A stretch of DNA of 64,000 nt, from IMG/VR virus record IMGVR_UViG_3300029913_000001, one strand, 5' to 3'. This DNA is from a virus. Lineage: Duplodnaviria > Caudoviricetes. The notes under the pieces are model-generated. The model saw only the letters and a list, made by a program, of their open reading frames with translations, was not told the origin of the DNA and did not search any database. The position numbers were made by a program, and so were the translations under genes. The first letter of the stretch is position 1. Every line of letters starts with the position of its first letter. Positions 5,560-46,287 of this stretch are shown piece by piece.

Positions 5560-5567
5560 TATTTATA
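5560..5567 (-). promoter_or_regulatory. T4-type late promoter TATAAATA
   Basis: Exact T4 gp55 late consensus upstream of 5544. Confidence 0.75.
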
Positions 5568-5576
5568 CGAAAACTA

Positions 5577-7253
5577 TTAATATAGATCAACAAAAAATGG
5601 TAGAGGCATTTCAATCTCTCTAAGATCATCATCCAATCCAGGAATATAATTTTTTATAGAATCTAACATACGAACAATAGTCAACATTGCGGTAACTAAA
5701 TCATCTGTTTCGCCTATTTTTGCCTCATATGAATTACCCATACTAATAAATGTTTTTAGTTCTGAAAGCAATTTTTTACTTTTTACCGTTAATTTATCTG
5801 ATTCGATTAGTTGTTTTAATTTTGAGCAAGCTGTTCTTTTACTTGAGCCGGTTGTACAGAATCCTTTCCTAAATTTTGCTGCTTGCCCCAATTTCATTGG
5901 CTCGGATAAAAATATGCCTGGAATATTTTCCTCTCCAATATCACGGATAGTCACTAATGTCGCTTCACCCACAGAATTATTTTCAACAGAATAAAATACA
6001 TTATTAATTCCAGCTATCTCGGTGAGATAGGTTGTAATTTCTGTCAAAATTTTTACTTGGCCTTCAATGGGAGTTTTATTATGACACCATTCTCCGCATT
6101 GTATCTTTGAAATTGCATCTAATATTTGAATAGCCGCCGGATCTCCTCCAGTGCCAAAACTCGGATCCAATGCAACAAGATATGTTCTATTTTTTTCTGG
6201 AGTCGTATACCATCTAATTTGCCCCATATGTTCGATTGGATCTACACCAGTCAATTCACTTAATTTAATTGGTGAAACTAGTGTTTCTTCATAGGTAACG
6301 AAGCGGCACAGAATTTCGCGTTCAAATCGTTCATTGCCGATTTTCTCTCGCCACATTGCTGCCCAGGCATCATCCCTCTCAGGATGCTCATACCAATATG
6401 CCCTGAATGCTTTGAATCCATTTATTCCTACTCCATTAGGTAAAGTATTACCCAATTCATCTTCAGTTTTATTTGCCGCATTCCATGTTTCCGCAAATAA
6501 ATCATCAGAGTTATTCGGTGTTGAAGTAATAATAGCCTTACCACCAGTAGCCGCTAAGGTAAGACTGCAAGATGTCCACATTTCTCTAGCAACTTGCTGT
6601 CTTTTAACAAACGCGAGCTCATCAAGGTATAAGATGTTTATGCTCATACCTCGACCAGTTGTTTCAGTTGTTGTTTGTGAAGCAATTTTTGAGCCATTAT
6701 CAAATACAATACTCTGCTTATTATATTCCGTTATTCCGGCACGTATAAAATCGGGCATATTTTCATATCCAAATTTTATACGTGACATAATTTCTGAAGC
6801 GCCGGTAAATTTATGGGCTGCAATAAGAATTGTCTGGTCACTTATAAACATTGCGCACCACAATAAATATCCAGCAGCAGTGACTGTATTATGACTAAGA
6901 ATATCGTTGGAATAAAATCTATGATTTTGACTATCCACAGTAATATCAAACATATTTTCGGATTCATTGCATGAAAATATGTTTTTAGTTTTTTGCAGGC
7001 CAAATTTTGTTTGAATTAATTGATTATTTTGTATATCTTTTAAAAATATTTCATTCATATTTTCATCGAAAACAATATGTGTATCGGCAGCATCCAATGC
7101 GGTATTTTCTAATTCAAGATGCCATTTTTCATAAGGAACAGTTTTATTAATAACAGATATAGGTTCCCACCCGGAATCCGTTTCAATCTCCCATTCATCG
7201 GATTCGATGGTATCAACGAATTTTCGTTCTATTTGTTCAGAAAAGTTAGACAT
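5577..7253 (-). CDS. terL: Terminase large subunit, C-terminal part, preceded by a 122-aa split-intein C fragment (6888..7253)
   Basis: Intein features: block B DTH, block F MFDITV, terminal SHN followed by Thr. Then Walker B YLDELAF and nuclease motifs ALDPSFG and DDLV. Confidence 0.95.
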   Translation of the reverse strand: MSNFSEQIERKFVDTIESDEWEIETDSGWEPISVINKTVPYEKWHLELENTALDAADTHIVFDENMNEIFLKDIQNNQLIQTKFGLQKTKNIFSCNESENMFDITVDSQNHRFYSNDILSHNTVTAAGYLLWCAMFISDQTILIAAHKFTGASEIMSRIKFGYENMPDFIRAGITEYNKQSIVFDNGSKIASQTTTETTGRGMSINILYLDELAFVKRQQVAREMWTSCSLTLAATGGKAIITSTPNNSDDLFAETWNAANKTEDELGNTLPNGVGINGFKAFRAYWYEHPERDDAWAAMWREKIGNERFEREILCRFVTYEETLVSPIKLSELTGVDPIEHMGQIRWYTTPEKNRTYLVALDPSFGTGGDPAAIQILDAISKIQCGEWCHNKTPIEGQVKILTEITTYLTEIAGINNVFYSVENNSVGEATLVTIRDIGEENIPGIFLSEPMKLGQAAKFRKGFCTTGSSKRTACSKLKQLIESDKLTVKSKKLLSELKTFISMGNSYEAKIGETDDLVTAMLTIVRMLDSIKNYIPGLDDDLREIEMPLPFFVDLY

Positions 7254-7609: not shown

Positions 7610-7937
7610 AAAATACTCCTATAGGAATAATATATACTTCTTTCTTTTTATTCCTTATAGTTACATTTATGCTAGCCGTCAAACATTTGCCTGATTGCCG
7701 AGGAAGTAACGAAATCGACCACCTGTTATTGTGGTATACATCAATTAACTTGTCTTGATAAGAATATGGTTTATATTTAATTTTTCCTTTGCACTGAACA
7801 TAAAAATAATTAGACAAAAAATAATGTGGGCCCGTTACAGGATCTGCGCATTTTGCAAATTCTTGCAGTTGCTCGGGAGTATAAGACATTTTTTGATGAG
7901 GTTTTTTAATTACAGCGGATTCCAAATAACTACTCAT
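7515..7937 (-). CDS. terL: Terminase large subunit N-terminal part (84 aa) fused to a 56-aa split-intein N fragment (7518..7685)
   Basis: YSYQ Q-motif, LLPRQSGK then CLTASINV (intein block A starting with Cys1), then stop. Confidence 0.92.
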   Translation of the reverse strand: MSSYLESAVIKKPHQKMSYTPEQLQEFAKCADPVTGPHYFLSNYFYVQCKGKIKYKPYSYQDKLIDVYHNNRWSISLLPRQSGKCLTASINVTIRNKKKEVYIIPIGVFYEYEFAKRAGTDLPDISEYRQPGERTLTKKI

Positions 7938-9073
7938 TTTATACCTGCTATTACTTTAGCTTCTTCGCATGGATTATCTATATGGGCAATAATACTAGGG
8001 CTGGCCGTCACAGCAGCTATTTGTACTTCTTTCGACGGATGGTTAATATAACGAATTACGTCTGGATGGGTTTCTACTGCCATTAATTTTACCTTTTCCG
8101 AGGCTACACCTTGTTGAAGCAGTTGTAAAATAATTTCAGGCTGTCGGCTAACCGCGATTAACTGTAATTTTTCCGACGGGTTTTTAATCATCATAATTGT
8201 AAACGCATCGTATTTAATAGCGAATTCTTTTATTTCTTCTGAAGGATTTTCCATATATCTTAAAACATAGGGATTTAAACGCAGTGCAATAAATTTCATT
8301 TCATCTGTCGGATTATTATAAAATCTATATGCGGCCGGATATGTTTTAATTGCCAACTTTATCATTAAATCGGACGGATTTTTAACGTGCTCTATATAAT
8401 CTCCGTGAGTCGTTAATCGAGTTAATATAATCGCATCTACTGGCATTAACTTTTTAAATACTTCTAAAAATAGTGAACTATCGGCATATATCGCAATATA
8501 TGTTCCTCGAATATAAACCTCGTTGCCATTAAGAAGTGCGCGTTCTAGTTCAGAGCTATTTTTAAAATCATATGTTTCTACAAAGGCATAGGCATTAAGA
8601 GTTTGTAAATCGGTTGCAAATCTAGAATTCGAGTAATCATATAGACCTAAATCCGACGTAAGATCTTGCGCGATCGGAGTCCACGTATATTTAAACCCGT
8701 CTAATGGAAAGATTACATATTTACGTCCATAAGAGTTAGCTCTATCTTCTGCCGAGGTGACAAATAAACTATTTCCTCGTCGTGCCAAAAATCCCGCGGC
8801 TTTTAACTTTTTATCGAGGGCGTGATGTATTGCTGGGAAGGTATCTTTTGGCATTCTATCCATGCGTGGCTTGCCAATAAAAATTTCTTTATTAACATCA
8901 TCACGTAGACCTTGACCGCGATATAAAATTCGATGGGTGTCGTTATACATTGATAAAATAATTTTACATTTACGTTGAATAAACTCAGCGATTTCCGTGG
9001 CTCTATTTTTATCTACGTAGGTCGTTTGGCCAGATATTATTCGCCCGGGTTTAAAAATTTCATTAATTAGCAC
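7934..9073 (-). CDS. ADP-ribosyltransferase-like domain plus NPSE-type helical repeats; MLINEI leader
   Basis: YRG...RRGNSLFVTS...YG..YVIFP...EVY; C-terminal about 22-aa repeats. Confidence 0.55.
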   Translation of the reverse strand: MLINEIFKPGRIISGQTTYVDKNRATEIAEFIQRKCKIILSMYNDTHRILYRGQGLRDDVNKEIFIGKPRMDRMPKDTFPAIHHALDKKLKAAGFLARRGNSLFVTSAEDRANSYGRKYVIFPLDGFKYTWTPIAQDLTSDLGLYDYSNSRFATDLQTLNAYAFVETYDFKNSSELERALLNGNEVYIRGTYIAIYADSSLFLEVFKKLMPVDAIILTRLTTHGDYIEHVKNPSDLMIKLAIKTYPAAYRFYNNPTDEMKFIALRLNPYVLRYMENPSEEIKEFAIKYDAFTIMMIKNPSEKLQLIAVSRQPEIILQLLQQGVASEKVKLMAVETHPDVIRYINHPSKEVQIAAVTASPSIIAHIDNPCEEAKVIAGIK

Positions 9074-10436
9074 GATACTTCACCCCGTTCGCTTGCGCTA
9101 TTTTAATTGCGGCAGCGCAAGCATGAGGAATATCATACACCACAAATGGAGCAGCAGTAACCGCGGCAATTTGAATTTCCTCTGAAGGATTTTGTATATA
9201 CATAATCGCACTTGGATTTTGAGTAACCGCGGCTAATTGAACTTCAGGTGACGCCTGGTTTTTAAAAAAACGTAAAACTAACCCCTCACGGGATACAGCC
9301 GCCATTTGCATTTCTTTTGTCGGAAATTTAATAAATTCAATAACATCGGGAGTACTTTTTATCGCTATTGATATAAGTTTGTCACTCACAGATACTTGCT
9401 GTAATAAATTACAGAGAACCCATGGATCTTTGGCATTTTGCAAAGCAATTTTTTTTAATTTTTCACTAGGATTTTTAATTGAATTTATTAAACGAGGCTC
9501 ATGAGATACCGCAATTTCTTTAACCTTTTCACTAGGATTTTTCAGATATCTGAATAACCATGCATTGTGTCTAGCTATAAAAAGTTGCATTTCTTCATCT
9601 TGATCCGTAACAAATTCAATTGCAGCAGGTTTATGTTTTAAGGCATATAGAATTAGTTTTCTAGAGGGATTTTTAACATATTTTAATGCTACTCCCGACG
9701 ACGCGCAGGCGGTCAAAATCATTTTTTCCGTTGGATTTATAATATATTTTAAAAAATTCCCAGTTGCACGTAATACGGAAAGTATAATTTTTTCAGCCGT
9801 GGCATCACCAAATAATTCATACATAATAATAGGAAAAGATAATTCGTCTGCCCGTATAGCGATATATGCTCCATGAATGCAAACTTCACTACTCGATCGC
9901 AAGGCATTGTATATACCTACATTATTTTTAAATTTATATTTGTCAACGAACTCTTTTGCCGTTAGATTATGTAAATCTTCCTGAAAAGAATTACTATCCT
10001 CATAGTAATTTGATAAAGAATACTCGGCTGTTAAATCATTGGCTGCCGGAGTCCACATATACGAAAACCCATCAATAGGAAAAATAACAAATCGATCTCC
10101 ATAATGTGCAATATCCATACCCGAAGCAGTTACAAAAATACTATTTTTTCGGAGAGCCGTAAATCCCATCTTAGATAGTTTATCATCAATTAATTTCTGA
10201 TTACGCCGGTCGGTATCTCTAGGGCGTCGATCGTTAAACGGTTTTCCTATAAAAATATTTGACCCATTTTCATAGGTACCTCGATAAAAAATTCGATTTG
10301 TTTTACGATAGTCCTCTAGAATTTTTTTGCACCTACGTTTAATAAACGCAATTGCATCATTAAGCTGCTCCGGAGTCAATAATAATTTACCTCCGGGCTT
10401 TATTTCTCCATACTTAATAATTTCATTTATGTGCAT
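9063..10436 (-). CDS. Tandem paralog: ART-like domain plus about 10 NPSE-type repeats; MHINEI leader
   Basis: YRG...RKNSIFVT...YG..FVIFP...EVC; clear similarity to 7934..9073. Confidence 0.55.
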   Translation of the reverse strand: MHINEIIKYGEIKPGGKLLLTPEQLNDAIAFIKRRCKKILEDYRKTNRIFYRGTYENGSNIFIGKPFNDRRPRDTDRRNQKLIDDKLSKMGFTALRKNSIFVTASGMDIAHYGDRFVIFPIDGFSYMWTPAANDLTAEYSLSNYYEDSNSFQEDLHNLTAKEFVDKYKFKNNVGIYNALRSSSEVCIHGAYIAIRADELSFPIIMYELFGDATAEKIILSVLRATGNFLKYIINPTEKMILTACASSGVALKYVKNPSRKLILYALKHKPAAIEFVTDQDEEMQLFIARHNAWLFRYLKNPSEKVKEIAVSHEPRLINSIKNPSEKLKKIALQNAKDPWVLCNLLQQVSVSDKLISIAIKSTPDVIEFIKFPTKEMQMAAVSREGLVLRFFKNQASPEVQLAAVTQNPSAIMYIQNPSEEIQIAAVTAAPFVVYDIPHACAAAIKIAQANGVKYRAN

Positions 10437-10524: not shown

Positions 10525-10902
10525 TTATTTTGGATGCGCACCAGAATTATGATTGTTAGGGGAGTGTTTATGAATTTCAGGAGTCTCTGCGCTATTTCTA
10601 TTTCCCAATTTTTTACCTGGATGCCCGCATAAGGCCGACGCTTTATCAATCATATCTTGTTCTTGTTGGGTATAAGCTGCACTAAAGGCTTGATCTTCAT
10701 ATGGACCATAAGGAGCAATTTTTGGCTCATCAGGATAACTTGCAGCCATTATCATAGATCTCATGTGAAAATATTGGTCCCCGTTTGGGTACCAAGTAGG
10801 ATTCGGTATCGCCGCCGATTGCTCAGGATGAATAGAACCGTGTGCTGTTTCGGCAAGCATCCCTAATCTTCTAGCACGTATTGGACTAATAGATCTTTCC
10901 AT
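10525..10902 (-). CDS. Hypothetical protein, probably virion-associated
   Basis: Co-oriented ORF with TAATG coupling in the late cluster. Confidence 0.55.
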   Translation of the reverse strand: MERSISPIRARRLGMLAETAHGSIHPEQSAAIPNPTWYPNGDQYFHMRSMIMAASYPDEPKIAPYGPYEDQAFSAAYTQQEQDMIDKASALCGHPGKKLGNRNSAETPEIHKHSPNNHNSGAHPK

Positions 10903-11189
10903 TATACATTACCAATTAGATTTTCTAATCCTCGAGTCGGAACTATTTCATAATTTTTATCTTTTAAAAATTGCTGAATAAGCTGGGTAAAATCATCTTC
11001 TTCATTAGCCTCTTCTAAATAGTCTGCTAACTGCCCAACAGGATCGTCGTCAGTAGCCGCAGGCTGGCTAAAATCAAATTGATGATCTTGCGCTGCAGGT
11101 TCAGTTGACGGCTCTACATCATTTTCGGCTTCCATTATTAGATCAGAATATGATCTAAGTAACTCAACACTATTTTTAACATTAGTCAT
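10902..11189 (-). CDS. Small acidic protein, probable head/core component
   Basis: GGAG Shine-Dalgarno before ATG 11189; LLRSYSDLIMEAE N-terminus. Confidence 0.6.
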   Translation of the reverse strand: MTNVKNSVELLRSYSDLIMEAENDVEPSTEPAAQDHQFDFSQPAATDDDPVGQLADYLEEANEEDDFTQLIQQFLKDKNYEIVPTRGLENLIGNV

Positions 11190-14097
11190 AATATTCATCT
11201 CCCCACTTACCGGTTCCCTCACCAAAACATTCTGAACATGTTAGCCCTGCAACTTTACCTGTTCCGCTGCATCTAGAGCAAGCATTAAATTTCTTTTTTG
11301 CTGGCACATCAAGTAAATCATCCAAATCCTCATGCGATAATTCTGTTGAATCTACCTCGGGAAATGTATCTAATGAATCCATTGGATTACCTTTTTGAAA
11401 GGTTAAAGTTTGTAATAATGCTGTCCTGCCGGTACCTTCTTTTGAAAAGCCAAACTCATCATTTATTGCCCAATCAAACTTGCCATCTTTTGATACCGTG
11501 ATAAAATCACCATCACCACGAGTAAAAACATGAGAAGAATGATTACCGGATTCTTCCTCTTCCGGACTATGCGTATATCCAAAATTAGCTAACTTACTTT
11601 CTAAATGTTTAAAATTTAATTGATTGGCCGTATATTTTGCATCATTTTCCGTTAATGATTCGCTAGGTACAGAATCAGCAAGTTTATTTTTAACTCGCTC
11701 TATTTCGGCTTTAATGGCATGCCTATTAGGAGCTTTTGCTGATACCGCCATATTATATCTTTTTTTCAATGCCGATAATTTTTCCCTAAGAGTTTGCTCT
11801 TCGTTTTCATTAATAACCGTTTCATTTACTCCTCGACGTTTTAATTCTTGTCGAATTGCTTTCTGCTGAAGTCCTGCAGGAGAATGCTTTGCAGTAGTAT
11901 CTGGGTTTGCTAGCATCTTCTTTAATTCTGGGATTGTCATTTTTCTAACTCTAGATATAACGGATTTTGGTGTTGCATCCAATTCAGGATCCCATCCAGC
12001 AAGACCACGTTTAATTTCCTTGCCCAAGCCCTCATCCAGAGTTTTAAATTTACCTGCTAAATTTTCAGCAATTGCATTAACCTTTGCGTTCTCATGCAAC
12101 GGTTTATCAATTTTATTAACCGCAACCTTCAATGGGTTATCACCAATACGATTTGGGAACATATCGTGCGACTGGCTCAATCCCTGAGTATCATCACACA
12201 CCGCCCTCCAATGAGCAATTTGCTCATTTGGTTCATTCGCCCATGCTTTCGGCGCACCATTAAGCCCGGTTGATTTTCTAGAGGGCGTTAATGATTCATC
12301 AACCTTTTTATCGTTTGCTGTCTTGCAATTATCACACATCATTTTACCATCCTTCATTCTCCATCGAGCGGTTTTTTTGCAATCTGCTGCGCTGCACCTA
12401 ACCCCGGGATGTTTAATTCTTTTTGGCTCCGCTGATTCATCAAGATAGGAATAAGAATCACCTTGATCAATTTTGCCACTTTTTAATTGAGCTCTAATTT
12501 GAGCTTCGGGAGTTTCCCCACCATGATTGTATTTAAACCCACAAGATCCGCATTTATAACTCCACTTTCCGGAAGCAATATAATCATCTTGGGATAATGG
12601 GTTACCGCAAAAATCACATTCGTGTCCCCGTGCATGAAATTCATTTAACTTCGATTCATTAAGATTTGGTACAACCTTAACATCCACAACTTCATTCTTT
12701 CCCTTAATAGCCGTGGCCTTAGTTACAGCAGATTCACGATCATCAAACTTAAACGCCTTCTCTTTTGAAGTAACCCATTTAGTAGGAGTTAAACTTAGAT
12801 AAGTTACAGGAGAAGTTTTAGTCTTACGAGCCTGAATTGAGTAACTCTTTGCTTCATCTAACGTATGTTTTTTATCATAACATTTACTACATAATCCATT
12901 ATATCTATCATTATGAATTACTTTGCCGCAATTTTGACAAACATCTTCGAAATCTTCATTGCTATCAAATTTTGATTCACTCATATTCATTTCAGTATCT
13001 GGTTCCATCAAAATTTCTTTTGGCTCTGCTTGAGAAATAGGAGCAGAAGAATTTAACCCAGATAATTCAATAATTCTAGCTAACTCTTCGGCTTTATCAT
13101 TATCGGCTGTTATGGTAATAGACTTTCTACTGGTCTTGCTATCATAACTTGTGGTAATATTAACGCTAGATTCTTCCGGTTCACAATATTGGCATTCATC
13201 TAGAGGATCTCGATCACCATATATATCATGATAGCAGACATCACAAAGTAATCCTTCGTCACATTCATGATTAGCTACTCGTTTGAAACAACCCTCGCAA
13301 TAATCATCCGCACCTTCTTCAAATTCGTCGTCTTCCCGATAGGCTTCTTTAATCTTTTTCATTTTTTTATCTGTAATATATCCTTGCCCATTACATTCTG
13401 GACAATTCATTTCACCGGTTCCCTTGCATTCTGAACACTTATCGTTTCCGGCATGGCCATTACATACCTGGCAAGGAATTACACCATCAGCCGTACAATT
13501 ATTGCAAACGGATTCGGTTACTTTTTTCTTTCGAGAAATACTTTCTGATACAAAGGGCTTAAGAGCTGAATTACAATTACGACACTCAGTTTTACTCGAG
13601 TCGAATACTTCACCACAATTAGGACAATATTGCGCTTCGTCGTTTGACTCAGGCATACGAGCGGCATTTTCATCATCCTGCTGTGCTGCCCGGGTGTCAA
13701 TATCCTCCTCTGATTCGTAATTGTCATTAAATGTAACTTCGTCTTCAAAATCATAAGAATTATCTGCGGCCATCGGCTGAGCAGCTTCGACTTCGTCATC
13801 GCTAAGATAAGTTCGAAGTAATTCCTCCCTGGTAGAATGCGTCAGATTTCTCCAGGAATCGCCATATTCATCATATAAACGATCACTTACCGCCTCCCTC
13901 GCACCTTCTCCATCAATTCCACGAACCGACATTAAATCGGGAGCAATTCCAGACCATACATCAAAAATACGATCACCCCAATTAGATGGGGTAAAATTTC
14001 CGGCTTCCTTAACTACAGAAGTGGGCGGCGTTGCACTCATAGTATTTGACTGTAATGAATTAAAAGTAGCTAATATACGACTGAAGTCGAAATTCAT
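11182..14097 (-). CDS. 971-aa mosaic head/core-like protein with 7 Cys-rich zinc-finger modules
   Basis: Seven CxxC clusters (two DnaJ-like CxxCxGxG); recurrent hydrophobic-x-E-[SANG] linkers; ELARIIELSGL and WANEP...GDNPL segments. Confidence 0.7.
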   Translation of the reverse strand: MNFDFSRILATFNSLQSNTMSATPPTSVVKEAGNFTPSNWGDRIFDVWSGIAPDLMSVRGIDGEGAREAVSDRLYDEYGDSWRNLTHSTREELLRTYLSDDEVEAAQPMAADNSYDFEDEVTFNDNYESEEDIDTRAAQQDDENAARMPESNDEAQYCPNCGEVFDSSKTECRNCNSALKPFVSESISRKKKVTESVCNNCTADGVIPCQVCNGHAGNDKCSECKGTGEMNCPECNGQGYITDKKMKKIKEAYREDDEFEEGADDYCEGCFKRVANHECDEGLLCDVCYHDIYGDRDPLDECQYCEPEESSVNITTSYDSKTSRKSITITADNDKAEELARIIELSGLNSSAPISQAEPKEILMEPDTEMNMSESKFDSNEDFEDVCQNCGKVIHNDRYNGLCSKCYDKKHTLDEAKSYSIQARKTKTSPVTYLSLTPTKWVTSKEKAFKFDDRESAVTKATAIKGKNEVVDVKVVPNLNESKLNEFHARGHECDFCGNPLSQDDYIASGKWSYKCGSCGFKYNHGGETPEAQIRAQLKSGKIDQGDSYSYLDESAEPKRIKHPGVRCSAADCKKTARWRMKDGKMMCDNCKTANDKKVDESLTPSRKSTGLNGAPKAWANEPNEQIAHWRAVCDDTQGLSQSHDMFPNRIGDNPLKVAVNKIDKPLHENAKVNAIAENLAGKFKTLDEGLGKEIKRGLAGWDPELDATPKSVISRVRKMTIPELKKMLANPDTTAKHSPAGLQQKAIRQELKRRGVNETVINENEEQTLREKLSALKKRYNMAVSAKAPNRHAIKAEIERVKNKLADSVPSESLTENDAKYTANQLNFKHLESKLANFGYTHSPEEEESGNHSSHVFTRGDGDFITVSKDGKFDWAINDEFGFSKEGTGRTALLQTLTFQKGNPMDSLDTFPEVDSTELSHEDLDDLLDVPAKKKFNACSRCSGTGKVAGLTCSECFGEGTGKWGDEYYD

Positions 14098-14106
14098 GAT
14101 TACTCC

Positions 14107-14718
14107 CTATCGAGCAAAGCTCGTAACTTTAGGTAATTTATTTTTTGAGCTACCCATTGCAGATTTCTCACCTATCTTAAATTCAGGATCATTCAATGTC
14201 TTGCCTTTTTCTTTTCGTAATTCTTTTGGTATAATTTGATCTGTGCTTCCAGCGGCATTCTTAACCAATCTAGAATTATATTCGTCCCCGTAATTAGCAT
14301 CGGCAATTACTTTATTATCTTGTTTTGGATAATCTTGATCCAATAATGCCTTATCGCTCGTATTAGCGGCAATTTCGAAATCTTCTTTATCCACACTAGC
14401 TTCGTGGTCGGAAGTCACAACCGAAACTGTTTCTAATTCGAGGCCAATGTTAGCGATTGTATGCCGAATAAATTCTGCCGGAGCAGGATAAGCAACCGAA
14501 ACATTAAAAATATAAGTTTCCGGATTACTAATGCCTGGAAAATCTTTATCAACCCGCTTAATGGGTTGGCTACGAACGGCCGTAATATCAACTAATTCAT
14601 ACCTAGAAAGAGCCCGCTCGATTTTAGTTAATATATCGTCCGTTGGTTTAAACAAGAGCTTCACGGTATATTCGTAATTTCTAACACTTTCAAAAAGATA
14701 TTCGCTAAATTTTTTCAT
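14107..14718 (-). CDS. Probable virion structural protein; MKKFSEYLFE leader
   Basis: ATAAATA at 14735-14741 and GAGG Shine-Dalgarno; T4 internal-protein-like N-terminus. Confidence 0.6.
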   Translation of the reverse strand: MKKFSEYLFESVRNYEYTVKLLFKPTDDILTKIERALSRYELVDITAVRSQPIKRVDKDFPGISNPETYIFNVSVAYPAPAEFIRHTIANIGLELETVSVVTSDHEASVDKEDFEIAANTSDKALLDQDYPKQDNKVIADANYGDEYNSRLVKNAAGSTDQIIPKELRKEKGKTLNDPEFKIGEKSAMGSSKNKLPKVTSFAR

Positions 14719-15222: not shown

Positions 15223-16656
15223 TTAGATTATTAAACTCCAATTAGCGGCAGTATAAGGACCGTCAACCGCTTGAATCCATGTGTTTCCGTTCCATTGGTA
15301 CTGAACCCCATTACCGATATCCTCCACAAATTGAATATTACCAACATTATTATTTGCTGAAAATGTTGTTATCCATGCATTACTATTGCTATTATATGTG
15401 ATAATATCGTTAATGTTAGCTGATGCCGTACCTACATATAAGGGCCATTCTGATATCAGATCAATATCTGTTTCAGTTTCTAAATCTGAACCAGATTCTA
15501 TTATCAAATTAACATTTGCATAATTATCATATGGAAATTGACTTCCGATATTTCCCGTTAATAAATAACTCTGGCCAGATGTTGGAAACGGTAATCCAAA
15601 GCCAGGCGCGACTTCCATCGGATTTACAATGCCTGTTATCGGTGGGATTGTATTAATGGGTAAAGAAGTTTCATCAATATTATATAACATATTAGTTGAA
15701 TCCGAAGGATCAATAGTAATAGTTCCGATAACTTCATTTGCATTATCAGCATAACTAAGAGATATCTGTGAAACTCCTGGTCGTAAATTTCCATAACTAG
15801 ATAAAATAGCGCCCCAATCTTGAGGTTGACCATATACGCCCACAATATTAGGCGACGTTAATCCTTGTTTCAGTATTTTAATTATACCATTTTGCACAAA
15901 AATTCCATAGTTATTAAATGTTACTACTGATCGCGTGCCGAACATTAAATCATTGCAATCTGATAATTCAATAATATCTGTTATTACTTTAAAAATAACA
16001 TTCATCTTACTAACACTAGCTGATAATGTCATCCAAATTGGAGATTCAAACTGTAGCGTCGTTATGTCATAGGTAGTATCGGTTCCTTGACCAACCGGTA
16101 TTGTTCTACTAGACCAGATAGTATCTGTTAATTCAAGATAACTTAAACTGTCCCATGCCAAAAAATTATCGCTTTTCTGAATTTCCATCGCAGGATTAAA
16201 CAGCGGCAAAATTTGTTCAAGAATTTGCATTTTTTGCTGCGTGTTACTAGTGACAATATCTAACCGCATTTCCATTTTATATGGCGCGGGCATAGGTCGT
16301 TTAATAGTATATGCATTTCCTTGTAGAGGTAAAAACGTATTTGATATAGGATCATACTGCCGCGTTCTTAAATTTTTTGAATCAACATACGTTGGATCCT
16401 GCGATCTACTTCTATCATATTTTAAATTATTAATATAGATGCTCATCATCGGAATAGTCGGCATCATATTTTCTGAGTTTAGTCGTTGAATTGTAGCAGC
16501 TTGCATTGACCCGTCACCCCAAATAATAGGTACGGTCATATACAATTGATTTCCCGATGCATCGACATTATATTGAACTTGCAATCCCGAGAAAACTCGA
16601 ATCACCTGCAATATCCAATTTCTTAACTGCGCCGAATAATGAAAATTCTCTGGCAT
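15223..16656 (-). CDS. gp15: Tail terminator/sheath stabilizer (gp15-like) with C-terminal extension
   Basis: VPIIWG, PMMS, MPAPY, QILEQILPLFNP motifs. Confidence 0.8.
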   Translation of the reverse strand: MPENFHYSAQLRNWILQVIRVFSGLQVQYNVDASGNQLYMTVPIIWGDGSMQAATIQRLNSENMMPTIPMMSIYINNLKYDRSRSQDPTYVDSKNLRTRQYDPISNTFLPLQGNAYTIKRPMPAPYKMEMRLDIVTSNTQQKMQILEQILPLFNPAMEIQKSDNFLAWDSLSYLELTDTIWSSRTIPVGQGTDTTYDITTLQFESPIWMTLSASVSKMNVIFKVITDIIELSDCNDLMFGTRSVVTFNNYGIFVQNGIIKILKQGLTSPNIVGVYGQPQDWGAILSSYGNLRPGVSQISLSYADNANEVIGTITIDPSDSTNMLYNIDETSLPINTIPPITGIVNPMEVAPGFGLPFPTSGQSYLLTGNIGSQFPYDNYANVNLIIESGSDLETETDIDLISEWPLYVGTASANINDIITYNSNSNAWITTFSANNNVGNIQFVEDIGNGVQYQWNGNTWIQAVDGPYTAANWSLII

Positions 16657-17090
16657 TATTTTTTACCTGGATTCTTAAAGAGTTCTAATTCCGTTAAAAT
16701 TCGAAACGAGCATCCATTTTTAGCGGCATATGCTAATGCCGCATTCCATTTTGCATGATTCTTTAAAATCTGAGCCTGATTAATTTTGCTCTTTGTCTTT
16801 ACTTGCCCTGTTTGATTAGTAGGCTTAATTTCGATAATTTCAGCATGTTTAACACCGTCTGCGTCAAGATAGATAATGAAAAAATCAGGAAAGTATCGTT
16901 TATTTTTTCCTGTTAATGGGTCTCTATATCCGATAGCTATCGATTCGCTTGCCCACTGAAGGATACTCGGATGGTTATCGAGAAATAGCATAAACGTAGA
17001 CTCCCACGACGATCGGTATGTTGGAATTCGTTGGCCGATATATTTCTCTTTATTCTTTACCTGATATAAACCTTTTGCCCATTTTCCCAT
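16656..17090 (-). CDS. gp4: Head completion nuclease (gp4-like, TnsA fold)
   Basis: YRSSWE, WASE, RYFPDF, EIKP motifs. Confidence 0.9.
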   Translation of the reverse strand: MGKWAKGLYQVKNKEKYIGQRIPTYRSSWESTFMLFLDNHPSILQWASESIAIGYRDPLTGKNKRYFPDFFIIYLDADGVKHAEIIEIKPTNQTGQVKTKSKINQAQILKNHAKWNAALAYAAKNGCSFRILTELELFKNPGKK

Positions 17091-17392
17091 TATGCTGCGA
17101 TCTCCCTTGCAATAAAAACAGGTGTTCCTTGATTTGATGCAACACCTATCAACGCATTCCGTGTTCTAACTGAATTTAATTGTGCAGCTAACATTATCGG
17201 GGAAATAGTTCCACTCTTAATTTGCTGAATTAGGGCCGCAGGAGTTATGCTCATGTTTTGGGCTATCAAAACATACATTTGAACTAATTCTGAGACTACC
17301 ACCGCATTCGAGCTCTGGCTTTCAGCATAGGCCTGAACATAGTCGAAGTTATTACGTTCAATATAGGAATTTTTTGTTTTAATAATAGCCAT
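17090..17392 (-). CDS. Hypothetical protein
   Basis: Coupled by TAATG to both neighbours. Confidence 0.6.
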   Translation of the reverse strand: MAIIKTKNSYIERNNFDYVQAYAESQSSNAVVVSELVQMYVLIAQNMSITPAALIQQIKSGTISPIMLAAQLNSVRTRNALIGVASNQGTPVFIAREIAA

Positions 17393-18135
17393 TAATATTC
17401 CTCCTCAACAAAATAGGCGGGCCCAGAAAACCATAGTTCATGAGAATCAGTGAGTGTAGGCAAAACTGATAATTTATAAAGCCCGAAAAAATTTTTCCCT
17501 GGATTTAGCGCGTGACTAAGCGCTTGGGAAAAAGATGTAAATTTGCTTAACGTTTCAAAACTTATTGAAAAATTGTCGCATATGTGCTCTACAAAATCTT
17601 CTGATTTTAATAGTACATGCCAATTCTTATTTAAAGCGTCAATAATCTTTGAGACTGTTTGTATATTGTCTATGGGTATCATATCACAATAAGACGCGAA
17701 CGATTTAAAGTAGTACGAAAAACTGCCAAGGTTTAAATTTTCAAATGCATTCCAAAAATCAGAAGTGGGGCAGACTCCCACTAGTGGGTTATTTAAAGGG
17801 TATACTTGATAAACAGTCCCATAACACGATGCGTCATCTAAATCAGATGTGCAAATAAAACTTTTTGATCTTTTAGGATATCGATTCCATTCAGGTAAAA
17901 AATTATCTATAATTAATGTATAATAATTTTCAGTATTTGCCGATACACGTTCTATAGTTCTGCTGTCTCCATATATCAGTTTATTGACATGTACGGTATT
18001 TATTCCTCGATAAATGTTTATAGGAGATGAAACCGCAATTGGACATTTTTCCGATAGAAAATTATATATATCGGATGCCTCGATATTAATTAATGTTGCT
18101 TGAGGACTATTTTCTTGTATTTCAAAGATTCTCAT
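17392..18135 (-). CDS. ART-like protein, subfamily B; MRIFEI leader
   Basis: YRG...NYYTLIID..W..YPKRSKSFICTS...YG...ELW; paralog of 27457..28221. Confidence 0.5.
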   Translation of the reverse strand: MRIFEIQENSPQATLINIEASDIYNFLSEKCPIAVSSPINIYRGINTVHVNKLIYGDSRTIERVSANTENYYTLIIDNFLPEWNRYPKRSKSFICTSDLDDASCYGTVYQVYPLNNPLVGVCPTSDFWNAFENLNLGSFSYYFKSFASYCDMIPIDNIQTVSKIIDALNKNWHVLLKSEDFVEHICDNFSISFETLSKFTSFSQALSHALNPGKNFFGLYKLSVLPTLTDSHELWFSGPAYFVEEEY

Positions 18136-19359: not shown

Positions 19360-19971
19360 TTAAATTGCGATTGTGCCTAATGTCCGACTGATTGCACTAC
19401 CGATACCGAGGGGAGATTGTAGCGCGTTATCGAATCTAACTGTCATTTTAATAGTCAATGGGTCAGATTTCGAATAATCATTGTCGCCGTAATCTACATT
19501 TGTTAGCCAGCATCCAACTAGATCATATGTTTCGAGAATTACTGGCTCGTTAGTACCATTTCCGCCATCCAATACTTCATATAACATTTCGAACTTATAA
19601 TCAGTGGCAGATGAAGCGGAACTCTGATTCTGGAAATCAAATTGCTTCTGAATTTGCTGCCCAACCAATGCCGATACTTCACCTAGCATATCATCACGCA
19701 GCGTAATATCTGTGGGATCCCAAGCCGGCTTGCCAGCGTAATGAACTTTACTACCATAGATATCTATTGTTTGTTCATCAAATTTCAATGAAGGGCGTTT
19801 TACATTCATTACCTGTTTTGTTAATTCGGTTGTCTGATTTGCAACGCCGAAGCCGATAAATAATGCCCGAAAACGATATGATAATTTAGGCATTAGCAGG
19901 CCTTGGCCCGATGCCGGAATTCCGATATCAGATAGTGGAACTGTAAAATTTAGAAGGCTCGCGGTTCCCAT
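19360..19971 (-). CDS. gp19: Tail tube protein
   Basis: PKLSYRFR, WDPTDITLRDD, LVGCW..NVDYG motifs; late promoter at 20007-20014. Confidence 0.88.
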   Translation of the reverse strand: MGTASLLNFTVPLSDIGIPASGQGLLMPKLSYRFRALFIGFGVANQTTELTKQVMNVKRPSLKFDEQTIDIYGSKVHYAGKPAWDPTDITLRDDMLGEVSALVGQQIQKQFDFQNQSSASSATDYKFEMLYEVLDGGNGTNEPVILETYDLVGCWLTNVDYGDNDYSKSDPLTIKMTVRFDNALQSPLGIGSAISRTLGTIAI

Positions 19972-23830: not shown

Positions 23831-23902
23831 TTGATTTTCCCTCACTTGTAAATCTAATAAACTTATATTGGTATTTAGCAACCTGACCTCAAAATAGCCG
23901 TT

Positions 23903-37318: not shown

Positions 37319-38503
37319 CTATGAAAAACTCAAATTTGCAACCGAAATCGAACTCAAATAATCGGCAGCATTACCCAAAGAACTAACGGAATTTGTTAGT
37401 TCAACGTATCCATATCTCGTGAGAAATGAGACCACGGGTTCGAAGGTAACTGGGTCAAGAACAACACCAGAACTCATCAAAGGAATATATGGACAGTAGA
37501 AAGCCGCTGCATCTGACTCACTTGCGCCCTTATAACCAACCAATACTGGAATTGCGTCATTTGCATAGCCGTCAACATAAATCTTCATTGAGCTATTCAA
37601 AGTTCCTACAAATTTAGTGTTAGTTGGCGCCTCAAATGTGCCTTCAGTTGTTCTTGCGAACGCTGAAGTAGTTGCTGACTGAAGAACAGTTAGTGCCGTA
37701 GGACTTACAACTGCCCAGTTACCTGCACCTCTACGTGTTCTCTGAGCAATTAAGTTAGCTGCTCGGTTAATCATAACTGCAAGTGCCGCGTGCTCATCGC
37801 CTACATAAGTAGCAGTACCTGAAACCAATGACTGATCAAAAGTCTGATCTGTGCCACTTAATGCGCGTAATGAACCCAAGATTTCCTGATCAATTTCAGC
37901 GGTGATTTCCTGAGCCAATGCAGCCATAATTTCGGCTTCTACATCAATACCGTGCATTGCCTGAGCGTCCTGAGCCGCTTCAAATGTCCAACGTGCAGAT
38001 AGCTTACGTGACTTAGCTTCAACAGTCTGACGTAGAATCTGAACATTGATCTTGTTACCAGCCTGTCCTTCTAGGTTAGCAGTCCAATCAGCCTGTCCAG
38101 TTGTTGCACTACCAGAGTAAGCAGTTGCAATCTTGAATGGGCTTAGGGCTTCGTCGCCTGCTGTCGTGCCAGTATTCCACGGATAAGGAGCAGTAACATT
38201 TTCAGTCTGAGCATATCGTACACGCAAAGTCTGAATCTGACCTACTGGGCCTGTCATCGGCTGTACACCAACTAACTCGTTAGCGATAACGGTTGGCATA
38301 ACACGTCGAATAACCGGTAGAATTACACGATTTAATGTTGCGATATTACCGGCTGCTGTTGAGCCACTAGTTGCACTCTCAAGCAGTGATTTGCGGGTGT
38401 TCTCGAGGATTGTAGCCATAACTGTCTTACGGTTACCTTGAAGTCCTTCGAGCAGGGCATTTTTTGTGTCAGCCCAACGATTTTCCAATAATGGTGTAGC
38501 CAT
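37319..38503 (-). CDS. gp23: Major capsid protein (T4 gp23-like)
   Basis: VGVQPMTGP.G, VEAKSRKL.A.WT.E.AQD, EI.AEID, FYCPY.PL, TRYG motifs. Confidence 0.98.
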   Translation of the reverse strand: MATPLLENRWADTKNALLEGLQGNRKTVMATILENTRKSLLESATSGSTAAGNIATLNRVILPVIRRVMPTVIANELVGVQPMTGPVGQIQTLRVRYAQTENVTAPYPWNTGTTAGDEALSPFKIATAYSGSATTGQADWTANLEGQAGNKINVQILRQTVEAKSRKLSARWTFEAAQDAQAMHGIDVEAEIMAALAQEITAEIDQEILGSLRALSGTDQTFDQSLVSGTATYVGDEHAALAVMINRAANLIAQRTRRGAGNWAVVSPTALTVLQSATTSAFARTTEGTFEAPTNTKFVGTLNSSMKIYVDGYANDAIPVLVGYKGASESDAAAFYCPYIPLMSSGVVLDPVTFEPVVSFLTRYGYVELTNSVSSLGNAADYLSSISVANLSFS

Positions 38504-39655: not shown

Positions 39656-39970
39656 TTACTCGGTATCTTCATCCCCACCTAAGTCTTCTAACTCAGCGAT
39701 TGTATCTTCCATTGTGCATCCAGCTTTTCCCATGTACTCATGCTCATTACTTAAAGCCATTTTAATATTTGCATACCAATATGATTTAGCACGGGAAACA
39801 ATATGATCTCCCCCAGGAATTCGCCGTACTTGATTCAATGCTTGATCAATTCTCTCTACTAGTTCGGACATTTCTTCCCAGCATTCGGATAACTCTGATA
39901 ATGTTTCTCCGCCGTCAAAAGATTCCTTAACCAACTTTTTATATTTTGTTATTTCCTCGATTAAATTCAT
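39656..39970 (-). CDS. MNLIEEITKY-leader protein
   Basis: GGAG Shine-Dalgarno; shared leader. Confidence 0.7.
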   Translation of the reverse strand: MNLIEEITKYKKLVKESFDGGETLSELSECWEEMSELVERIDQALNQVRRIPGGDHIVSRAKSYWYANIKMALSNEHEYMGKAGCTMEDTIAELEDLGGDEDTE

Positions 39971-39972
39971 TA

Positions 39973-40464
39973 TTATCTCCTGTTGCATTCATCAATCTTT
40001 AATTTGCCTTTCTTTGAAAACGGCCCCGGTGTTACTTTTGATTCGTCGATCAATTCCCAATTTTCCTCAAAATTTTGAACTTTGTCCCAATCTTTATTTT
40101 TAACAGCATTGCGATATTCTATTACTTCTTTTTCTGATGGAACTCGAAACTTATCCCCAGAATGACTTGTTATAATTCTTTCGCCACCGTTACCTAAAGG
40201 CATTGATCCTGTAGGTACTGATTCTTTAATCGATCCCCATTTATTTTTCTGTTTTGCACGAATGGCAAATGTAAGTTGATGCTCTTTTTTCTTAAGAACT
40301 TCTGTCTTATTTGGATTTTTCTTGCATTTAGCTAATTCGGCCTTTAACTCAGAAAGAGTATAATTTTTCCATTTACCCTCATCTTTTTTCTTGGTGGCCA
40401 TCTTCTCATTCCAAGACTCGTTTAAAACATTTTGATATTTTGTTATTTCTTCAAGTAAATCCAT
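39973..40464 (-). CDS. MDLLEEITKY-leader protein
   Basis: GAGGAG Shine-Dalgarno; shared leader. Confidence 0.75.
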   Translation of the reverse strand: MDLLEEITKYQNVLNESWNEKMATKKKDEGKWKNYTLSELKAELAKCKKNPNKTEVLKKKEHQLTFAIRAKQKNKWGSIKESVPTGSMPLGNGGERIITSHSGDKFRVPSEKEVIEYRNAVKNKDWDKVQNFEENWELIDESKVTPGPFSKKGKLKIDECNRR

Positions 40465-40480
40465 GTTGGCTCCTCAGTTC

Positions 40481-41041
40481 TTAATCATAATACGATGGTG
40501 TATATTTACGTGTCTTCGGTTTTTTAACCTGTCTAACTCCGTGTTTAACTAACCAATCAGCAAATTCTTTAACATTAGTAAATCCAGTAGATTTTAAATT
40601 ATCTTTTCCATTCATAAACCATGCTTCTGGATTATGAGAGGAAATATCTTGTACTACTAATCTAACTGGGCTAAACAAATAAAATTCTAATTCATCTACA
40701 TCTGCCGGGCCAACCTTACTAATCGTTAAATCTGATATAACTCGAAAGACTTGTTTTTCTTTCGGATCTGTAAAATCTTTTGGATATTTCATACGCGTTT
40801 CAAGCGACGATAATTCAGCCATTTCATAATCATATTTGTTATAATAATGATCAACAGTATTTTCATCTTGAGGACCATTAAGAAATTTAATTATAATTTT
40901 TGCATCACGTAGTGGCAATCGAATACCATACTCTTTTCCAATGGAAATCAATTCTTCCGGAGTTTTTCCTGCTAATGGCCTAGGCACCGATGATTCCAAT
41001 ATAACTCGTTTATAATTTTGAATTTCTTCTATTAGATTCAT
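40481..41041 (-). CDS. MNLIEEIQNY-leader protein
   Basis: AAGGA Shine-Dalgarno; shared leader. Confidence 0.75.
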   Translation of the reverse strand: MNLIEEIQNYKRVILESSVPRPLAGKTPEELISIGKEYGIRLPLRDAKIIIKFLNGPQDENTVDHYYNKYDYEMAELSSLETRMKYPKDFTDPKEKQVFRVISDLTISKVGPADVDELEFYLFSPVRLVVQDISSHNPEAWFMNGKDNLKSTGFTNVKEFADWLVKHGVRQVKKPKTRKYTPSYYD

Positions 41042-41051
41042 AAAAAATTCC

Positions 41052-41456
41052 TTATTTAATATATTCTTTACCTTTATTTAAAATAATATTAAATTTATCT
41101 AAATATTTCTGAGCTCGCTCTGGATTATCAAAATCAAAATAAACAGGTAGATGAGTATTTCCCGTATGAATAATTTCAACTTCATTTGTTAACCGATCAT
41201 ATTTTGTGATAATAAATTCCATTCCGGCGACATCCTTATCAACGCCATTAGAATATCTTGTAAATTCCGAATTGGGTGCAGTTTTACCAGGACCACTGAA
41301 AGCCTTTTCAAATGGGTGCTCTGCAACATTTAATGGAAGATGGGTGGTATGTGTCTTAATATGCTCATTCTCTTCTTTATAGGAACGAGGAGTAAACTCA
41401 TCTTCCGATTCATTTAATATAGATCGATAATTTTGCATTTCTTCTAATAAATTCAT
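41052..41456 (-). CDS. MNLLEEMQNY-leader protein
   Basis: Start refined to 41456 from the shared leader. Confidence 0.75.
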   Translation of the reverse strand: MNLLEEMQNYRSILNESEDEFTPRSYKEENEHIKTHTTHLPLNVAEHPFEKAFSGPGKTAPNSEFTRYSNGVDKDVAGMEFIITKYDRLTNEVEIIHTGNTHLPVYFDFDNPERAQKYLDKFNIILNKGKEYIK

Positions 41457-41457
41457 A

Positions 41458-42189
41458 TTACCATGCCTCACGAGAATTTTCATCGTCAAATTGACGAGCT
41501 GCTTCTTGTTTCCAACCACCGGGATCTCTATCAATCGGCTGTTGAGCTATTTCTTTTTCTAATGTAAGTCGAATAGTTTGAAGTGTGTTTATAAACTCGA
41601 TACCCATATCACTAGAAGCATCGATATGATATAGTTTACCATTAACGAACTTTAATAACTCTGGTAAACCACCATCAAGCGGCTCTTCCCAAGCCTCATT
41701 AGCCAAAGATTCTTTAAGCGTGTGTTTTAAAAATTCTTTTGAAAAACTTATTGACTCGTAATATCTATCACCATAAGCTCTCAACTTATCTGATTTTCTG
41801 CCAAATATTCCAATCTTTGCTAATCCATCATATAACTTATTTTTTTCATATGCTGCTAGAATATCACCATTGACCGCTTTTCTAAGTGCGGGAAGAATTT
41901 TTCCTATTCGTTCATATGCTACATCTGGACCATTATCGGTTATAGTTCTATAAACTACCAATTTTTCTAGCTCTAACTGAGGATTTTTAGCATGACTAAT
42001 ATCTCCCCAATAACCATAGCAATCGGGGTCCTGTTCTTTAGAAATTTTAACAGCTTTCGGATATCTTTTTGTACACAAAAATATACTAGGATATTTTTTT
42101 GCTAACTCGATTGGGGTCAAGTGGGCTTTTTTAACTGCCCCTTCTATTAATATTCCTCGATAATTCTGAATTTCTTCTAATAAATTCAT
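41458..42189 (-). CDS. MNLLEEIQNY-leader protein
   Basis: AGGAG Shine-Dalgarno; shared leader. Confidence 0.75.
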   Translation of the reverse strand: MNLLEEIQNYRGILIEGAVKKAHLTPIELAKKYPSIFLCTKRYPKAVKISKEQDPDCYGYWGDISHAKNPQLELEKLVVYRTITDNGPDVAYERIGKILPALRKAVNGDILAAYEKNKLYDGLAKIGIFGRKSDKLRAYGDRYYESISFSKEFLKHTLKESLANEAWEEPLDGGLPELLKFVNGKLYHIDASSDMGIEFINTLQTIRLTLEKEIAQQPIDRDPGGWKQEAARQFDDENSREAW

Positions 42190-42197
42190 GATTTCTC

Positions 42198-42848
42198 CTA
42201 ATTTAGTTTCAATTCATTAATGAATCGAGTTAATTCTTCTTTAAGGTAGCGTTGAACTTTTGGGTTCGATTTAACTTCAGCCGCCATTTCAAAAACATCA
42301 TCACCATTTTTACGGAAGTTACGCAGGCCTTCATATACAGGGATGGGGAACGCATTCGGAGCCGATGGCTGGGCGACTACATCAACAGTAACAATTTCAA
42401 AGTCGCTAACGTAACCACTACTCTCATTAACATTACCCGAACCGCGAGAACTAACCCCCAATTTACACCCACTCTCAAGAATAGTCTTAATAATATTACC
42501 CATTGGGGTAGGAATAATCTTTAATTTACCGCAGCCATTTGCACCTTCCATCCACATCGAGGAAATAGAGTGACTAATACGATCTATATTAATATTTAGA
42601 CCAGTTGGATGGTCTCCTTCTCCGAAAATTGGAGCCCCCGATTCAATCAAGGTATTCATCGCCGTAACGGCTCTTTTAATTTCTGTTACCGGATAAATTC
42701 TCTGATTATAGTTTCTAACATCGCCTTGAATGAAGATTCCCTTCATATACAGATCTTTTTGCTTCTGCCCAGACGCATTAACTGATTCTGCCACTTCAGT
42801 TATCATTGTTGCGGGATTTTGATATTCAAACAACGGAATCTTATTCAT
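42198..42848 (-). CDS. gp21: Prohead protease (gp21-like)
   Basis: GIFIQ....N.N.RIYP, GE.DHP, GVSSRG.G, D.V..PSAP.A motifs. Confidence 0.97.
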   Translation of the reverse strand: MNKIPLFEYQNPATMITEVAESVNASGQKQKDLYMKGIFIQGDVRNYNQRIYPVTEIKRAVTAMNTLIESGAPIFGEGDHPTGLNINIDRISHSISSMWMEGANGCGKLKIIPTPMGNIIKTILESGCKLGVSSRGSGNVNESSGYVSDFEIVTVDVVAQPSAPNAFPIPVYEGLRNFRKNGDDVFEMAAEVKSNPKVQRYLKEELTRFINELKLN

Positions 42849-46253: not shown

Positions 46254-46287
46254 AATCCTTCCTAAGTTATTTATCAATTAATTACTA

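Follow-up and report, generated by a model that had tools for sequence, protein, structure and literature searches.

A candidate internal head cargo polyprotein with predicted prohead protease sites between its modules in a Caudoviricetes sequence

The window analyzed here, a stretch of 64,000 nucleotides from IMG/VR virus record IMGVR_UViG_3300029913_000001 (Duplodnaviria; Caudoviricetes), contained an open reading frame (ORF) on the minus strand, at positions 11182 to 14097, predicted to encode a protein of 971 amino acids (P0001). With a rough probability of 0.55, and judged from sequence, P0001 is a head-packaged cargo polyprotein that is cut by the prohead protease of the phage into approximately 14 pieces. 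A first-pass annotation of the same DNA had placed the ORF at exactly these coordinates and named its product a candidate capsid polyprotein; the polyprotein part of that name was compatible with the motif, boundary, and conservation data, while the sense of a shell protein did not stand, and "candidate internal head cargo polyprotein" is the better description. The public gene call for P0001 (P0002, 952 amino acids) begins at Met20 and is truncated, as residues 1 to 19 (14040-14097, minus strand) were kept in at least 17 relatives, which identifies Met1 at position 14097 as the real start.

All 14 tetrapeptides of the form hydrophobic-x-Glu-small that had been listed as protease-like sites were present in P0001, with the P1 Glu at residues 31, 150, 185, 195, 251, 374, 415, 481, 554, 601, 669, 689, 764, and 817. 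Three extra matches (Glu 261, 678, and 960) probably do not mark boundaries. The motif [LIVMF]xE[SAGN] occurred 17 times in P0001 compared to 4.75 ± 2.1 expected (20,000 shuffles, P ~5e-5), and the narrower [LIVM]xE[SA] occurred 10 times compared to 2.2 expected from shuffles. The excess, which the first-pass annotation had proposed to gauge against non-virion proteins, was absent from the non-head ORFs in the rest of the window (59 versus 67.0 expected; ratio, 0.88) and present in the head-module and leader-bearing ORFs (35 versus 19.5 expected). Ranked by motif density, P0001 stood among the protease, a small head-module protein, and the scaffold homolog. Across the 22 members of the P0001 family, 238 motifs were found compared to 91 expected, and nearly all members were enriched individually.

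The proposed processing enzyme for P0001 is a predicted serine protease of the T4 gp21 family encoded in the same window (Table 1). In T4, the Peptidase_S77 member makes its cut after L/I-x-E, acts on core proteins at multiple positions, and trims off the leaders that serve capsid targeting (PMC9026906). The hydrophobic-x-Glu (h-x-E) motifs of the window's own capsid protein were LLE↓N, LLE↓G, ILE↓N, and LLE↓S (↓, predicted cut) at Glu 7, 19, 34, and 42, with 0 in the other 352 residues, which predicts a 42-residue capsid propeptide that may be cut several times. Six small ORFs of the head module had a common 16-residue leader, M-N-L-L-E-E-I-Q-N-Y-R-x-I-L-x-E↓S/G/N, and none belonged to a PHROG family; three of them were listed with over-extended 5' ends, the leader Met being internal (e.g., 41052-41534 and 45924-46277). 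These six ORFs look like the internal-protein locus of the phage, and T-even internal-protein genes have the same arrangement. The sites in P0001 thus look like the junctions of the most credible protease substrates that the phage encodes.

Conservation at the sites was uneven by position. In orthologs that were 62% identical overall, the P1 Glu was identical in 85% of cases and P1' in 76%, compared to 39 to 58% for flanking linker, and P3 was hydrophobic in 88% of ortholog site cases, with P2 free. Codons at the 14 sites varied (four different ones each for Ser and Leu and both of those for Glu), and no direct DNA repeat of at least 14 nucleotides was found at the P0001 gene. The retention of P3, P1, and P1' while P2 and codons drifted, with no DNA repeat, indicates that selection acts on the peptide. 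The selected positions are those on which gp21 processing depends according to work on T4, where positions 8 and 10 in the capsid-targeting sequence correspond to P3 and P1 in the L/I-x-E rule (PMC9026906).

This pattern bears on an unlikely alternative, that P0001 is an uncut "beads on a string" multi-zinc-finger protein, in the virion or not, acting for example as a DNA- or protein-binding organizer at packaging or head completion, with linkers that are merely alike in their hydrophobic-x-Glu-small composition. A plain linker should not keep P3, P1, and P1' while P2, flanks, and codons drift, nor should it match the propeptide junctions of the capsid and leader proteins, even if the position of the gene between head-completion and terminase genes, the commonness of multi-zinc-ribbon proteins, and a leader unlike known capsid-targeting sequences would all suit such a protein.

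The sites also tended to mark module boundaries, as the first-pass annotation had claimed. In an AlphaFold2 (AF2) model of whole P0001 (mean predicted local distance difference test score [pLDDT], 47; too poor for fold searches), 16 of 17 sites lay in segments with pLDDT of <50, which made up 61% of residues; given the poor model, this placement is supportive only, and "linker" status partly reflects a shallow alignment (4 sequences). The confident blocks bracketed by sites were residues 40 to 105, 155 to 180, 196 to 242, 416 to 479, 770 to 810, and 828 to 900. P0001 was also compared by BLASTP with approximately 150 proteins from an exhaustive phmmer search, with three close orthologs excluded so that the remaining proteins were of unrelated architecture. 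Of the 190 high-scoring segment pairs (HSPs), 55% started 5 residues or fewer from a site, compared to 19% under the null (maximum, 28%; 2,000 permutations), and 48% crossed a site, compared to 66% expected.

Alignment of orthologs revealed whole modules gained or lost with both edges on or near h-x-E sites. Residues 375 to 415 were found only in P0001 and were absent from P0003, P0004, and P0005, with indel edges 4 to 5 residues from both sites. Residues 151 to 185 and 555 to 601 were absent from the ortholog P0005, with indel edges no more than 4 residues from either site for the former and 6 residues from both sites for the latter. P0003 contained a 41-residue insert between VDE↓A and VNE↓S, and P0004 contained large inserts ending on IKE↓S or beginning on LDE↓S. 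In the four-ortholog alignment as a whole, 25% of indel boundaries were within 5 residues of a site compared to 16% expected (P ~0.01), a test that is noisy because P0005 aligns poorly. Self-BLASTP found no internal repeats in P0001, and with no direct repeat in the DNA, the modules differ from one another, as had also been noted from the sequence at first reading.

P0001 contained 36 Cys residues. The seven CxxC-type clusters previously listed were all found (residues 158 to 175, 198 to 235, 267 to 288, 387 to 406, 494 to 519, 568 to 591, and 940 to 957) and accounted for most of these Cys; outside them were a CQYC pair at residues 302 to 305 and a lone Cys at residue 634. The description of P0001 as a series of zinc-finger microdomains held for the seven clusters and not for every module, since at least 6 of the approximately 14 fragments were without Cys clusters. 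The four-CxxC module (residues 196 to 251) matched phrog_28723 (E value, 6e-5), and its sole PDB match was a weak one to the BSD2 zinc finger (E value, 0.39); the sites that bound it were kept in all four orthologs. CxxCxGxG-like (DnaJ-like) repeats were visible in this module and in the C-terminal finger, with no match to Pfam at an E value of ≤1. The segment of residues 252 to 374 included a small beta-alpha domain at residues 313 to 345, and LDE↓C at residue 301, kept in orthologs, may be a further site. The basic module at residues 416 to 481 was modeled with pLDDT of 70 to 76 over exactly that interval, and both of its bounding sites were kept in orthologs. The CDFC/CGSC ribbon had a weak PDB match to the L37ae ribbon (E value, 0.56), the LTE↓N site was kept in P0003 and P0004, and the fragment of residues 818 to 971 contained no internal conserved site.

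Relatives of P0001 formed a family of approximately 22 representative proteins of 426 to 1,249 amino acids, all metagenomic. Common to the family were a conserved leader and a core module (residues 602 to 689 of P0001) that was always bracketed by h-x-E; all else varied, including Cys counts, which ranged from 5 to 52. The leader consensus was M-D-M-x-x-I-L-A-V-F-N-S-L-Q-N-N-N-L-S-A-T-P (more loosely, M-D/N-x-x-x-I-L-x-x-F-N-S-L-Q-N-N-N-x-S-A-T-P) followed by h-x-E; the leader was kept in at least 17 members, and the h-x-E fell at approximately residue 25 to 31 in nearly all. The core module was bracketed by [MVL]-x-E↓[SAG]-L on one side and L-[DN]-E↓[NSGA] on the other, and an alignment of 22 members (A3) contained 10 invariant columns, with sites kept on both sides. 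It was modeled by AF2 from 22 sequences as mostly extended with two helices (pLDDT, 62); it had no Pfam or PHROG family and no match in cultured phages, and only subthreshold rows were returned from the ESM Atlas. No informative family was identified for P0001, its modules, or the 21 relatives in sequence searches of Pfam, PHROGs, NCBIfam, and PDB; the Pfam scan of the 22 members returned only zinc-finger families in 1 or 2 members each, and NCBIfam returned nothing.

Single modules of P0001 were also found in other proteins. The CDFC/CGSC ribbon was widespread as stand-alone proteins of 47 to 90 amino acids (P0028, P0045, P0053, and others), and the CEGC/CDVC unit was found as stand-alone proteins of 51 to 100 amino acids (P0088, P0090, P0103, and P0108). 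The module at residues 690 to 764 (GLGK module) recurred in more than 30 other proteins, and [VMA]-x-E directly preceded the module in 18 of 18 GLGK-anchored copies. A plain linker, as supposed for an uncut multi-zinc-finger protein, should not accompany single modules into unrelated architectures in this way. Stand-alone GLGK modules with T4-like leaders were found in P0037, P0048, and P0030; one such leader, M-K-T-L-R-D-Y-I-N-L-I-E↓S, is similar to M-K-T-Y-Q-E-F-I-A-E↓A of T4. Strings of unrelated modules with Q-G-V-A-E↓G as the linker were found in P0046, P0114, P0055, P0061, P0036, and P0051 (loci L014 to L016), from T4-like aquatic phage contigs, with leader-like N termini such as M-K-S-F-A-E-F-A-E↓S; these strings have the GLGK module in common with P0001, at the same junction. 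The QGVAEG linker occurred 8 times in P0114 compared to 0.04 expected, and the only match of P0114 among 50,697 phage records was one of 60 residues in a Variovorax phage. The acidic helical module of P0001 (residues 38 to 183) was also the C terminus of P0018, whose N terminus matched the product of window ORF 4123-5544 on the minus strand (phrog_13484, "virion structural protein"), which suggests module exchange between two late proteins.

On the cargo polyprotein reading, P0001 would be made together with the structural genes and would enter the prohead core by means of its leader of approximately 30 residues, possibly also through the extended invariant core module. The gp21-type protease would then cut after Glu at approximately 13 to 14 [LIVM]-x-E↓[S/A/G/N] sites and release approximately 14 fragments of 1 to 17 kDa. 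These would comprise seven zinc microdomains of 4 to 8 kDa, a number of acidic segments, three or four basic domains of small size, and the core piece, which is invariant and largely unstructured; the basic fragments have calculated pI values of 9.5 to 10.1. Folded fragments would remain with the DNA in the head, and at least some would exit with it at infection, such that one address label would bring a whole set of small binding modules into the head at fixed ratios, a set that is open to evolution. The small size of the modules, their zinc stabilization, their lineage-specific turnover, and their independent existence in phages would fit stoichiometric binders with host or DNA targets; the modules may act as DNA binders or as inhibitors of host defense.

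Several observations weigh against this reading, of which the weakest links are prohead entry and the cleavage itself. The P0001 gene lies in the neck/terminase block, away from the protease and scaffold genes. Its leader bears no evident resemblance to the T4 capsid-targeting sequence or to the phage's own MNLLEE-type leader. A complex prediction for the leader (residues 1 to 45) with the scaffold homolog, run without controls, scored 0.00 and counts neither for nor against. V and M at P3 were commoner in P0001 than under the T4 rule, although a leader with V at P3 is also encoded by the phage. Of the motifs counted, FEE↓G, IAE↓N, and FGE↓G probably do not mark boundaries, and LHE↓N, which lies inside the conserved core module and is LHE↓D in many relatives, is a doubtful site. 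The shallow alignment behind the AF2 placement of sites has been mentioned. No cultured-phage homolog of P0001, of the core module, or of the stand-alone P0037 was found by tblastn or megablast among the 50,697 phage records. At the position of the polyprotein gene in phage PA5oct is EST35_0203 (498 amino acids); homology between it and P0001 was not supported (hhalign probability, 0.4%; BLASTP E value, ~1), and its motif excess was not significant (5 versus 2.8).

A second explanation, rather improbable, is that P0001 is a sacrificial accessory of the core or scaffold that is cut in the prohead to make room for DNA, with modules serving in assembly only. Such a role has precedent in T4 gp22, gp67, and gp68, core proteins that undergo multisite cleavage and then expulsion (PMC9026906), and the core module, being invariant and extended, could make a contact during assembly. 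P0001 had no similarity to gp22-like scaffold proteins and is not encoded beside the capsid gene, a place that is occupied by a separate scaffold homolog (Table 1). Variable cargo is better fitted by the gain and loss of folded zinc modules and by their free-standing versions in phages, and the folded fragments of 4 to 8 kDa are of the size of T4 IPI*, which is retained in the head. That the motifs are functionless scars, left by fusion of once separate leader-bearing genes or by shuffling at junctions, with no present-day cleavage, is very improbable, for although stand-alone homologs have leaders that end in the motif, the site DNA is heterogeneous without a direct repeat of at least 14 nucleotides, so that DNA-level junction recombination is not supported in P0001, and scars should not have kept P1 and P1' in relatives with approximately 50% identity.

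Table 1. Modules of P0001 and other features of the window
Feature	Coordinates (strand)	P0001 residues	Remarks
Conserved N-terminal leader	14005..14097 (-)	1-31	Ends VKE↓A; candidate propeptide or targeting signal
Acidic helical module	13648..14004 (-)	32-150	pI 4.1; ends MPE↓S; AF2 pLDDT 70-78 at 40-105
Zinc ribbon 1, CPNC/CRNC	13543..13647 (-)	151-185	Bounds MPE↓S and VSE↓S
Basic spacer and four-CxxC module	13345..13542 (-)	186-251	10-residue spacer from VSE↓S to VTE↓S, then module; ends IKE↓A
Acidic segment, zinc module CEGC/CDVC (~261-300), CQYC pair	12976..13344 (-)	252-374	Ends MSE↓S
Zinc ribbon CQNC/CSKC	12853..12975 (-)	375-415	Lineage-specific insertion; bounds MSE↓S and LDE↓A
Basic alpha/beta module without Cys	12655..12852 (-)	416-481	pI 9.8; bounds LDE↓A and LNE↓S
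Zinc ribbon CDFC/CGSC with helical tail	12436..12654 (-)	482-554	Bounds LNE↓S and LDE↓S
Basic zinc module CSAADC/CDNC	12295..12435 (-)	555-601	pI 9.5; bounds LDE↓S and VDE↓S
Hallmark core module	12031..12294 (-)	602-689	W-A-N-E-P-N-E-Q ... G-D-N-x-L-K-V-A ... L-H-E ... K-F
Basic helical module	11806..12030 (-)	690-764	G-L-G-K-x-I-K-R ...; bounds LDE↓G and INE↓N
Basic helical module	11647..11805 (-)	765-817	Ends LTE↓N; AF2 helices, pLDDT 63-77
Beta-rich domain, acidic linker, C-terminal CxxCxGxG zinc finger CSRC/CSEC	11185..11646 (-)	818-971	
Upstream neighbor	14107..14718 (-)		203 amino acids; N terminus M-K-K-F-S-E-Y-L-F-E↓S; phrog_14802, "virion structural protein"
Downstream neighbor	10902..11225 (-)		Small, very acidic; leader end L-I-M-E↓A-E; overlaps polyprotein stop codon
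Terminase	5577-7253		
Tail-completion gene	15223-16656		
Head-completion gene	16656-17090		
Tube	18135-19289		
Sheath	20648-23881		
Major capsid protein	37319..38503 (-)		phrog_138, E value 3e-98
Scaffold homolog	38515-39582		Adjoins capsid gene
Five small leader-sharing ORFs	39656..42189 (-)		Between scaffold homolog and protease
Sixth leader-sharing ORF	45924-46277 (-)		Upstream of portal
Prohead protease, T4 gp21 family	42198..42848 (-)		Peptidase_S77 PF03420, 81.6 bits versus cutoff 27; phrog_207, E value 3.8e-54
Portal	46288-48045		

No near relative of the window was found among the 50,697 phage records. The phage is an uncultured giant of T4 type, and its capsid protein had 67 to 72% identity to the capsid proteins of T4-core jumbo myoviruses, namely, Vibrio phage 2.275.O, GAP32, CBB, and Phosso. 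A homing-endonuclease-like gene (35624-37162, minus strand; phrog_314) with an HNH C terminus directly adjoins the capsid gene, and a Hef-like homing endonuclease is found at the equivalent place beside the capsid gene of PA5oct. Three paralogous proteins starting with M-x-I-x-E-I are encoded within positions 7934 to 10436 and 17392 to 18135 on the minus strand, two of them with long N-P-S-E-type repeat arrays.

Synteny around the polyprotein gene was kept in three lineages (L001, L010, and L011). The order was a head-completion gene, a 161-amino-acid gene, a gene of approximately 205 amino acids starting with M-K-K-F-S-E-Y-L-x-E↓S, and the polyprotein gene, followed by a gene for a small acidic protein with a leader end of h-x-E↓AE, a gene of approximately 120 amino acids, and the terminase gene. 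The syntenic neighbors of the polyprotein thus had cleavable-looking leaders in all three lineages, with the equivalent acidic proteins encoded at 10317-10631 in L010 and 5708-5956 in L011. In the window, the overlap of the acidic-protein start with the polyprotein stop codon suggests translational coupling. The PA5oct homolog of the upstream neighbor, EST35_0202, is annotated as a virion protein detected by electrospray ionization tandem mass spectrometry, and EST35_0203, at the polyprotein position, is likewise annotated as a virion protein detected by mass spectrometry (PMC7318152). These annotations and the setting of the gene speak for the cargo reading. The Phosso gene at the polyprotein position was rejected as a counterpart because it encodes an unrelated repeat protein.

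The P0001 gene runs in the same direction as the tube, head-completion, and terminase genes and lies tightly packed among them. The T4 late-promoter consensus TATAAATA occurred 13 times in the window compared to 12.7 expected, with none directly upstream of the P0001 gene. A strong terminator-like hairpin (19345-19319, minus strand; 12 pairs, 6 of them GC) lies between ORF 19360-19971 and the tube gene and separates the nearest TATAAATA match from the P0001 gene. Late transcription of P0001 is thus suggested by co-orientation and tight packing only. Boxes of TATAAATA at 5560, 20007, 42866, 42890, and 51187 on the minus strand were 15 to 40 nucleotides upstream of structural gene starts, the genes behind them being 4123-5544, 19360-19971, the protease gene, and 48886-51171.

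If the cargo reading of P0001 is right, the T4 scheme, in which each cargo has one leader and receives one cut, would be extended to the polyprotein strategy that is otherwise a feature of RNA viruses. With a single label, the phage would load a dozen small effectors at fixed ratios, and the protease would make them small enough for exit through the tail. Several widespread orphan phage modules, among them the GLGK module and the zinc ribbons found as stand-alone proteins, would for the first time be placed in a functional context. Module swaps at cleavage sites would account for the diversification of an injected arsenal in jumbo phages, and the reading would suggest a design for multicargo delivery with T4-based vectors. 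The reading is open to simple tests, and P0001 appears to belong to a broader pattern that is unpublished. Tentatively, and at somewhat less than an even chance, phages with a T4-type core, especially jumbo phages, may have a general and undescribed means of arming the capsid, in which one leader loads a string of modules, the prohead protease cuts the string, the pieces are delivered with the DNA, and modules are swapped at the sites. P0001 would be the zinc-ribbon-rich version of this system encoded in the structural operon, tied to the QGVAE version by the shared module and junction.

No published description of such a cargo polyprotein was found in the literature; the related systems were T4 internal proteins, phiKZ-like multisite propeptide cleavage, and polyvalent proteins. 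The view of P0001 as a multimodule precursor subject to capsid targeting and gp21 processing of the T4 type is partly supported. Similar to T4 IPI, IPII, IPIII, and Alt, P0001 is found with a Peptidase_S77 protease in a T4-core head module, has hydrophobic-x-Glu before each unit, and consists of predicted units that are small (4 to 17 kDa) and whose content varies between related phages. The T4 internal proteins differ in that each is encoded by a separate gene, begins with a 10-residue leader of its own, and is cut once at the N terminus (Alt is also cut at the C terminus), whereas P0001 is predicted to have approximately 14 units on one polypeptide behind one unrelated leader of approximately 30 residues, with a cargo of mostly zinc ribbons.

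The core proteins gp22, gp67, and gp68 of T4 and the propeptides of phiKZ, 201phi2-1, and SPN3US are likewise single polypeptides with several post-Glu prohead protease sites (PMC9026906; PMC10052503), which in P0001 are predicted. In those proteins the cuts destroy parts that are later removed, while in P0001 the sites separate folded, independently occurring modules; furthermore, the phiKZ-type motif is S/A/G-x-E, compared to hydrophobic-x-E in P0001. Polyvalent proteins of phages and conjugative elements (Iyer et al. 2017; PMC5512222) also combine many unrelated domains in a single phage polypeptide, for which packaging and delivery have been predicted and proteolytic release of domains proposed, and P0001 resembles them in having approximately 14 distinct modules and in being encoded in a window with terminase and portal genes. 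However, polyvalent proteins are built of enzymes (MPTase, ART, kinases, and nucleases), often with a peptidase of their own, whereas P0001 and its 21 relatives are without such Pfam domains and are predicted to rely on sites for a trans-acting head protease. The closest parallels in organization were the QGVAE↓G strings (P0046, P0114, and P0055), which have leader-like N termini, unrelated modules joined at V-A-E↓G, and the GLGK module in common with P0001. These strings are joined by one stereotyped hexapeptide linker, while P0001 is distinguished by a degenerate motif with heterogeneous codons, another leader, and a location in the structural operon.

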